Positions 1 to 1,066 of a stretch of 64,000 nucleotides of DNA are shown here, piece after piece. The stretch is taken from positions 520,042 to 584,041 of the forward strand of contig GG774889.1 in the NCBI GenBank assembly GCA_000163695.1, in the 5' to 3' direction. The notes below the pieces were generated by a model, which made no database searches, had not been told where the DNA came from, and saw only the letters and a program-made list of their open reading frames with translations. A program made the translations under genes and the position numbers. Each line of letters opens with the position of its first letter. Positions within the stretch are counted from its first letter, which is position 1. Source of the DNA: Bacteroidetes oral taxon 274 str. F0058. Lineage in GTDB: Bacteria; Bacteroidota; Bacteroidia; Bacteroidales; Paludibacteraceae.

Positions 1-66
1 CCGATGACTGGGGCTAAGTCGTAACAAGGTAGCCGTACCGGAAGGTGCGGCTGGAACACCTCCTTT
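1..66 (+). rRNA. rrs: 16S rRNA, 3' terminal fragment (window starts inside the gene)
   Basis: Reads ...GGGGCTAAGTCGTAACAAGGTAGCCGTACCGGAAGGTGCGGCTGGAACACCTCCTT, the canonical Bacteroidota 16S 3' end including the anti-Shine-Dalgarno CACCTCCTT. Confidence 0.9.
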
Positions 67-221
67 ATAGAGATAAGCGAAGGTGTATAAGTTATAAGAG
101 GGAGTATTTTTACTTTCTTATACTACGGAGTTGTTTTGATAGAGACATATAGAAATAAGACTATTGGATAAAGGACTTTTGGTCTTGCGTCTGATAGTTT
201 TTTGTTTATGTATTGGGAAAT

Positions 222-295
222 AGTCCTATAGCTCAGTTGGTTAGAGCGCCACACTGATAATGTGGAGGTCCGCAGTTCAACTCTGCGTGGGACTA
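222..295 (+). tRNA. tRNA-Ile (anticodon GAU) in the 16S-downstream spacer
   Basis: Cloverleaf with D-arm AGCTCAGTTGGTTAGAGC, anticodon loop CTGATAA, T-arm GGTTCAACTC and a 7-bp acceptor stem containing one G-U pair. Confidence 0.88.
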
Positions 296-314
296 CGATT
301 GAAAGGTTACAAAA

Positions 315-389
315 GGGGGATTAGCTCAGTTGGCTTAGAGCACCTGCCTTGCACGCAGGGGGTCAAGGGTTCGAGTCCCTTATTCTCCA
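315..389 (+). tRNA. tRNA-Ala (anticodon UGC)
   Basis: GGGGGATTAGCTCAGTTGG... with anticodon loop CTTGCAC and the G3:U70 Ala identity pair; the acceptor 3' strand ATTCTCC is followed by ACC. Confidence 0.88.
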
Positions 390-402
390 CCGATAGATGA
401 GG

Positions 403-432
403 CTGTTACACACGAGGTAACAGTCTTTTTTT
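403..432 (+). terminator. intrinsic terminator ending the 16S-tRNA-Ile-tRNA-Ala transcript
   Basis: Perfect hairpin CTGTTAC-acacgag-GTAACAG followed by T8. Confidence 0.75.
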
Positions 433-549
433 TGTATACGACCACCGGCGAGAAAAATGTTATTTGTTTCGTCAATTGTATGGTGTTGTCGATAGGCATT
501 GTCTATTTTGATATAAAATATATTGTTTGGCTATTTGGATATTATGATG

Positions 550-557
550 TAACTTTG
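550..557 (+). promoter_or_regulatory. Bacteroidota -7 promoter motif (TAnnTTTG) for dps
   Basis: TAACTTTG lies ~40 bp upstream of the dps ATG. Confidence 0.5.
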
Positions 558-598
558 CAGAAAAATTATTAATAATAAATTTATAAAGGAACAGTAAT

Positions 599-1066
599 AT
601 GAAAGTATTAGATTTTACGGGACTGAAAAATGTCCAGAAGGTAACAAAAGGTTTAAGTCAATTATTGGCAGATTTGCAGGTTTATTATACCAATCTCAGA
701 GGCTTCCATTGGAATATAAAAGGCAAAAATTTCTATGTTCTTCACAAACAATTTGAAGATATGTATAATGACGCTGCAGAAAAAGTCGACGAAGTAGCCG
801 AAAGACTGCTTATGTTGGGCGAAACTCCTCAGCACAATTTTTCGGATTATCTGAAAGTATCGCAAATAAAAGAAAGCGGTTTGGTAACCGATGGAGACCA
901 AGCGATGAAGAATATATTGGAAACATACAAATACCTTATCCACCTCGAACGTCAAATATCGGCAGATGCTGCCGAAATCGGCGATGACGCTACCGTAACA
1001 TTGATGGGCGATTACATCGAAGAGCAGGAAAAGGCTGTCTGGATGATGGTTGCTTATTTCCAATAA
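599..1066 (+). CDS. dps: Dps family DNA-protection / ferritin-like protein
   Basis: 155 aa; ...HWNIKGKNFYVLHKQFEDMYNDAAEKVDEVAERLLMLGETP... matches the Dps ferroxidase-centre region. Confidence 0.85.
   Translation: MKVLDFTGLKNVQKVTKGLSQLLADLQVYYTNLRGFHWNIKGKNFYVLHKQFEDMYNDAAEKVDEVAERLLMLGETPQHNFSDYLKVSQIKESGLVTDGDQAMKNILETYKYLIHLERQISADAAEIGDDATVTLMGDYIEEQEKAVWMMVAYFQ

Follow-up and report, generated by a model that had tools for sequence, protein, structure and literature searches.

The 16S rRNA gene of Bacteroidetes oral taxon 274 very probably belongs to a self-contained rrs-tRNAIle-tRNAAla transcription unit, with the 23S and 5S genes encoded elsewhere. This unit opens the window, by which we mean the whole 64-kb stretch of DNA analysed here, and its end was compared with 28 metagenome contigs that carry the same tRNA-Ala end. 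The best reading of these sequences is that the rrs unit would occur at several sites across the population of the species and its close relatives. Since 23S is missing from all the sampled contexts, the rRNA genes of the lineage are most likely all unlinked.

The canonical Bacteroidota rRNA operon has the order 16S-tRNAIle-tRNAAla-23S-5S. In the window, the first three genes were found in this order on one strand, and no 23S or 5S gene was found within the few hundred bases past tRNA-Ala. The features at the start of the window are the following:

1 to 66, forward strand: the 16S rRNA gene's 3' end (RF00177 of Rfam, positions 1468-1533 of the 1533 in the model, 63.1 bits)
67 to 221, forward strand: post-16S spacer; its first ~70 nt make up the 3' half of the stem for 16S processing
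222 to 296, forward strand: tRNA-Ile (GAT) (ARAGORN; Rfam tRNA, 70.2 bits)
315 to 391, forward strand: tRNA-Ala (UGC), with G3:U70 (ARAGORN; Rfam, 66.3 bits)
399 to 433, forward strand: hairpin 1, intrinsic-terminator-like (terminator scan and folding)
434 to 469, forward strand: post-terminator stretch, homologous to a cydAB-linked rrs copy (blastn and sequence reading)
526 to 557, forward strand: candidate Bacteroidetes-type promoter motif of dps (sequence reading)
599 to 1066, forward strand: dps, DNA-protecting ferritin-like protein (Pfam Ferritin PF00210), the first gene past the rrs unit

A sequence-only reading of this DNA had noted that no 23S gene follows the 16S-tRNA-Ile-tRNA-Ala segment, and this was borne out: neither a 23S nor a 5S gene was found in the 64-kb window at Rfam gathering thresholds. 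Positions 1-1200 contained no weak LSU or 5S remnant at E <= 1, and a 23S signature motif was found in none of the 121 loci scanned. Spurious ORFs in the spacer corresponded to no protein on record.

The 16S match is truncated solely by the window edge. Its 66 nt recur unchanged as the 3' end of a full-length 16S gene (Rfam 1-1533, 1489 bits) in L108, a single 8.7-kb contig with the order ygbA, pnuC, MnmC-like methyltransferase gene, 440-nt leader, 16S, tRNA-Ile, tRNA-Ala and terminator, followed by a 1.1-kb cassette, hairpin 1, a DUF4492 gene, cydA and cydB. Over the 390 nt that end with tRNA-Ala, the window and L108 show few differences, mostly small indels, and based on this near-identity the window's own copy probably also has a full-length 16S gene. 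In an alignment of all copies the post-16S spacer was 97-100% identical, and the tRNA-Ala 3' end (C391) was the last base common to the different rrs copies. The leader and post-16S spacer of L108 form a long duplex (-66 kcal/mol, compared with -45.9 +/- 4.7 for shuffled leaders), in which the partner from the spacer is the same sequence as window positions 67-135. This duplex is the expected 16S processing stem and a sign of a functional unit.

Directly behind tRNA-Ala, hairpin 1 has an 11-bp stem (399-409 paired with 417-427, including 4 G-C pairs), a 7-nt loop and a run of eight T (T426-T433), that is, the stable G+C-containing stem-loop and U-run of an intrinsic terminator. It folds with -13.6 to -14.8 kcal/mol and a modest z of -2.3 relative to shuffled sequences. 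The terminator that the sequence-only reading had placed at 403-432 corresponds to the core of this hairpin; the gap of 14 nt from tRNA-Ala that it gave was too long, the actual distance being 7-11 nt. The core is unchanged in the window and in 16/16 contigs in which the same tRNA-Ala end leads to dps, and the two variable positions of the stem both preserve pairing (G.U to A-U; G-C to G.U). The structure is thus conserved as in an intrinsic terminator, with the reservation that the sequences are all from close relatives and that covariation support is weak. Transcription is predicted to stop at this hairpin.

Hairpin 1 was found again behind the rrs units of L092, L093, L095, L104, L105 and L107-L109. 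In the contigs linked to cyd genes, the hairpin and about 40 nt after it close the rrs-linked region, and in L092 and L093 the hairpin alone does so. The corresponding match between L095 (1486-1558) and window positions 400-469 is 86% (blastn), which suggests that the rrs repeat unit may once have ended at 434-469. Its recurrence behind other rrs copies suggests that the hairpin belongs to an ancestral rrs repeat unit, and that the cassettes found in some copies (see below) would be insertions between tRNA-Ala and the terminator.

The dps gene expected downstream was confirmed as a member of the Ferritin/Dps family; it starts 533 nt past the 16S end, and its product scores below the cut-off of the NCBIfam Dps models. 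The protein and EFI16876.1, from Bacteroidetes oral taxon 274 str. F0058, are identical, and the window is assigned to this strain or one nearly identical to it. The same protein is also encoded on hundreds of human oral metagenome contigs, HMP samples included. Upstream of dps we found TTTG (526-529), a distance of 20 nt and TAACTTTG (550-557), an arrangement that we take to be the Bacteroides -33/-7 consensus. The promoter proposed in front of dps is thus supported by a match to a Bacteroidetes-type motif, but a generic sigma-70 scan found no promoter upstream of the gene. The block 511-598, in which the motif is situated, is near-invariant in the 17 dps-type copies (the window and 16 contigs), and 436-510 is variable.

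Comparison with related genomes, suggested by the sequence-only reading, showed the linkage between rrs and dps to be absent from the relatives scanned. The nearest dps found in another species, in a Porphyromonadaceae MAG and 90% identical, lies behind tRNA-Val, with no rRNA in its neighbourhood, and a scan of genome contigs of more distant relatives for dps found no rrs-dps linkage. This absence from the scanned relatives indicates that the linkage is lineage-specific. In the MAG (L011 9744-10993), dps lies between the upstream tRNA-Val and a downstream tRNA-Pro(TGG) and tRNA-Gln on the opposite strand; the tRNA-Pro(TGG) of the window is at 39424-39499, 39 kb distant.

Taken together, these features predict the following course. 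Transcription would begin upstream of the 16S gene and yield a primary transcript in which 16S, flanked by the leader/spacer processing stem, is followed by tRNA-Ile and tRNA-Ala, and the transcript would end at the hairpin and U-run, 7-11 nt past tRNA-Ala. The dps gene would be driven by its own promoter, and the 23S-5S genes would be transcribed at another site under a separate promoter.

The junction of tRNA-Ala, hairpin 1 and dps was found in 16 independent metagenome contigs, HMP oral samples included, which derive from different samples and projects and from MEGAHIT, SPAdes-type, JGI and HMP assemblies. Strain-level differences flank the junction on both sides. All 16 contigs end upstream within the spacer or the 16S 3' end; none extends beyond 16S position ~1479, the cut falling within the last 66 nt of the gene. 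Short-read assemblers normally break at repeats, and repeated rrs units explain why assemblies of oral taxon 274 break here. MEGAHIT k=141 contigs of the dps type have their start at 251-259 of the window, about 140 nt ahead of the tRNA-Ala 3' end, and cyd-type k=141 contigs also begin about 140 nt ahead of it, which places the repeat boundary at the tRNA-Ala 3' end.

Scanning metagenomes with a spacer-specific 28-mer (window 170-197) yielded seven more contigs. All begin within the 3' end of 16S and include the two tRNAs. None of the seven has a 23S gene or continues into dps; past tRNA-Ala, six have a different strong hairpin with a T-run and one has a tyrosine integrase gene. Five more contigs with the same tRNA-Ala end were reached via the downstream gene cydA. 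In the resulting census of 29 copies (the window and 28 contigs), 17 lead to hairpin 1 and dps, 11 to the second hairpin (-26 kcal/mol if its neighbour is included), with protein genes beyond it, one to the integrase and none to 23S. The evidence supports the unlinked rRNA arrangement that had been named as one of three options for this locus, alongside a rearrangement breakpoint and an assembly artefact.

The same 16S end and spacer occur in at least three or four genomic contexts of the sampled population, with 23S absent from each. At least four further contigs (L116-L119) join the methyltransferase gene to the 16S 5' end. Past the pnuC-methyltransferase block, some oral contigs continue into a 16S gene and others directly into a ROK kinase gene, and these variable neighbours indicate that rrs units mark points of rearrangement among lineages that are closely related. 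On the other side of the block, L112-L115 and L116-L121 share sdaA-ygbA-pnuC-methyltransferase, with identical PnuC, and differ in their upstream neighbours. A search for long contigs spanning other rrs copies returned only contigs that end at rrs or come from lineages whose genes are ordered differently. From the sequences at hand we infer that different rrs contexts may coexist in one genome. Instead, the contexts linked to dps, cyd and acyltransferase might be alternative states of strains or sister species and not paralogues in one genome; that L108 crosses the whole 16S gene in a short-read assembly is more easily explained by a single rrs copy in that strain.

The breakpoint option was upheld in part, in that rrs flanks differ between loci and lineages; a simple island insertion within the window was rejected. 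A genomic island inserted at tRNA-Ala would not fit the window, since there is no second tRNA-Ala 3' end in the 64 kb and core genes follow downstream (lpxD, purM, purF and rseP).

The window copy could also be an orphan rrs that arose by rearrangement in a mixed genome, next to one or more canonical 16S-tRNAIle-tRNAAla-23S-5S operons. Most assemblies branch directly past tRNA-Ala, where a branch into 23S would look alike, and a canonical copy would assemble as a short contig between two conserved genes, which the metagenome scan could miss. Mixed genomes also have a precedent: Brewer et al. (10.1101/705046) found them to make up 0.62% of complete genomes. This reading is nevertheless improbable, as 23S follows no copy with this spacer among the 29, against three other continuations that were all seen. 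The positions at which the k=141 contigs begin agree with branching into these alternatives, which have only 0-1 bases past the tRNA in common. A 16S fragment kept solely for its tRNAs would be a different matter: the visible 16S in the window starts at position 1468 and the dps-type contigs reach back to ~1479 at most, as would be the case for a truncated tail with two tRNA genes and no functional 16S. A decaying copy would have drifted, however, and the 16S tail, the half of the processing stem and the spacer differ from the intact copy at few positions, mostly small indels. Since the contigs stop where k-mers are common to all bacterial 16S genes, their ends are an expected technical break, and the short 16S remnant that the sequence-only reading had considered is very improbable.

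Even less weight can be given to an assembly artefact or collapsed repeat, in which the true sequence after tRNA-Ala would be a 23S gene and the join to dps chimeric. It is true that rRNA repeats are a classic site of mis-joins and that every contig at the window locus breaks inside the rrs unit. The identical join in 16 contigs across samples, assemblers and projects, with strain variation on both sides, speaks against such an error, as does the position of the junction 200 nt inside a unique stretch co-linear with dps. L108, moreover, assembles a full rrs unit without 23S. An artefact can be practically dismissed, and the self-contained rrs unit with 23S-5S encoded elsewhere is the reading that we retain.

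Behind tRNA-Ala, sister rrs copies carry additional genes. Between tRNA-Ala and hairpin 1, L091-L096 and L104-L109 contain 1-5 cassettes (for example L108 4561-5700; L093 on the reverse strand), made up of small lipoprotein-like ORFs and of orphan Rhs C-terminal ends, which show a YYHTDHLGS motif and in one instance a CHAP domain. In front of each cassette stands a conserved ~60-nt promoter block (TATAACTTTG), and the whole looks like an array of putative toxin-tip/immunity genes behind an rRNA operon. In L097, a 78-kb contig of which 1.9 kb were examined, a tyrosine integrase (Arm-DNA-bind_5, SAM_5, Phage_integrase) is encoded at 832-1917, starting about 450 nt past the rrs-linked tRNA-Ala, which suggests a possible integrative element with this tRNA-Ala as its attachment site. 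The insertion of cassettes or an integrase behind tRNA-Ala is a more unusual lead than the unlinked layout itself. One tentative and rather doubtful idea is that the tRNA-Ala 3' end would be an insertion hotspot of this lineage, that such an insertion could originally have severed 23S-5S from 16S, and that the rrs unit, being highly transcribed, may today be a landing pad for interbacterial-warfare cassettes.

Elsewhere in the window, positions 9181-30700 contain about ten same-strand paralogous leucine-rich-repeat genes with a T9SS C-terminal sorting domain. Their proteins are made of 63-nt (21-aa) repeats, and several of the genes are followed by a conserved repeat:

11202-11287, 14403-14488, 23310-23395, 24515-24600 and 30678-30763: examples of the 86-nt hairpin-containing repeat

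A further LRR/T9SS protein with an internalin-J-like match is encoded at 57207-58721 on the reverse strand, with ten tandem 63-nt repeats at 57652-58470. At 60608-63484, a ~750-nt segment is present in three copies that are 85-96% identical and span the ORFs 60608-61291, 61418-62053 and part of 62186-63391 (reverse strand). The segment lies where the GC content of the window is lowest (35-38%) and represents a recent local gene triplication.

Oral taxon 274 is associated with periodontitis. Whole 16S-ITS-23S amplicon profiling would miss it, and so would linked-operon databases (for example, MIrROR). Earlier unlinked cases came mainly from slow-growing soil taxa and endosymbionts; a cultured, human-associated member of the Bacteroidales with apparently several unlinked rrs units is tractable for studying the balance of 16S and 23S without co-transcription. 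A literature search for oral taxon 274 or HMT-274 with unlinked rRNA found no specific report.

The layout of oral taxon 274 is one of unlinked rRNA genes, a class already known, and is uncommon for its group. Compared with the canonical Bacteroidota operon, the order and anticodons of 16S, tRNA-Ile(GAT) and tRNA-Ala(UGC) are retained together with the leader/spacer processing stem, whereas the second spacer, 23S and 5S are absent and a predicted terminator takes the place at which the stem for 23S processing would have its 5' half. Brewer et al. (10.1101/705046) define rRNA genes as unlinked when no 23S lies in the 1500 bp beyond the 16S 3' end, and none was found over this distance here. They report unlinked genes in 3.65% of complete genomes and mixed ones in a further 0.62%, with the trait conserved at the species and genus level. 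In the same study, human gut long reads contained no unlinked rRNA genes, the Bacteroidetes were not among the enriched phyla, and only the uncultured Rikenellaceae RC9 gut group was flagged among the Bacteroidales (334/624 long reads). Oral taxon 274 resembles this class in having no 23S in 64 kb and protein genes directly downstream, and the trait appears conserved across its population. Unlike the earlier Bacteroidales case, it is cultured and from a human oral host, and several of its copies appear unlinked.

Split operons with a 16S unit separate from 23S-5S, as proposed here, are also those of Helicobacter pylori, Wolbachia, Buchnera, Rickettsia, Thermus and Borrelia, and in H. pylori the 16S and 23S-5S precursors mature independently (as summarised in PMC7761764). 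Unlike the endosymbiont cases, oral taxon 274 shows no sign of extreme reduction or AT bias, the GC content of the window being about 42%. Both spacer tRNAs have remained with its 16S gene, and a dedicated predicted terminator follows them, a combination that presumably sets this arrangement apart from those of the other six.
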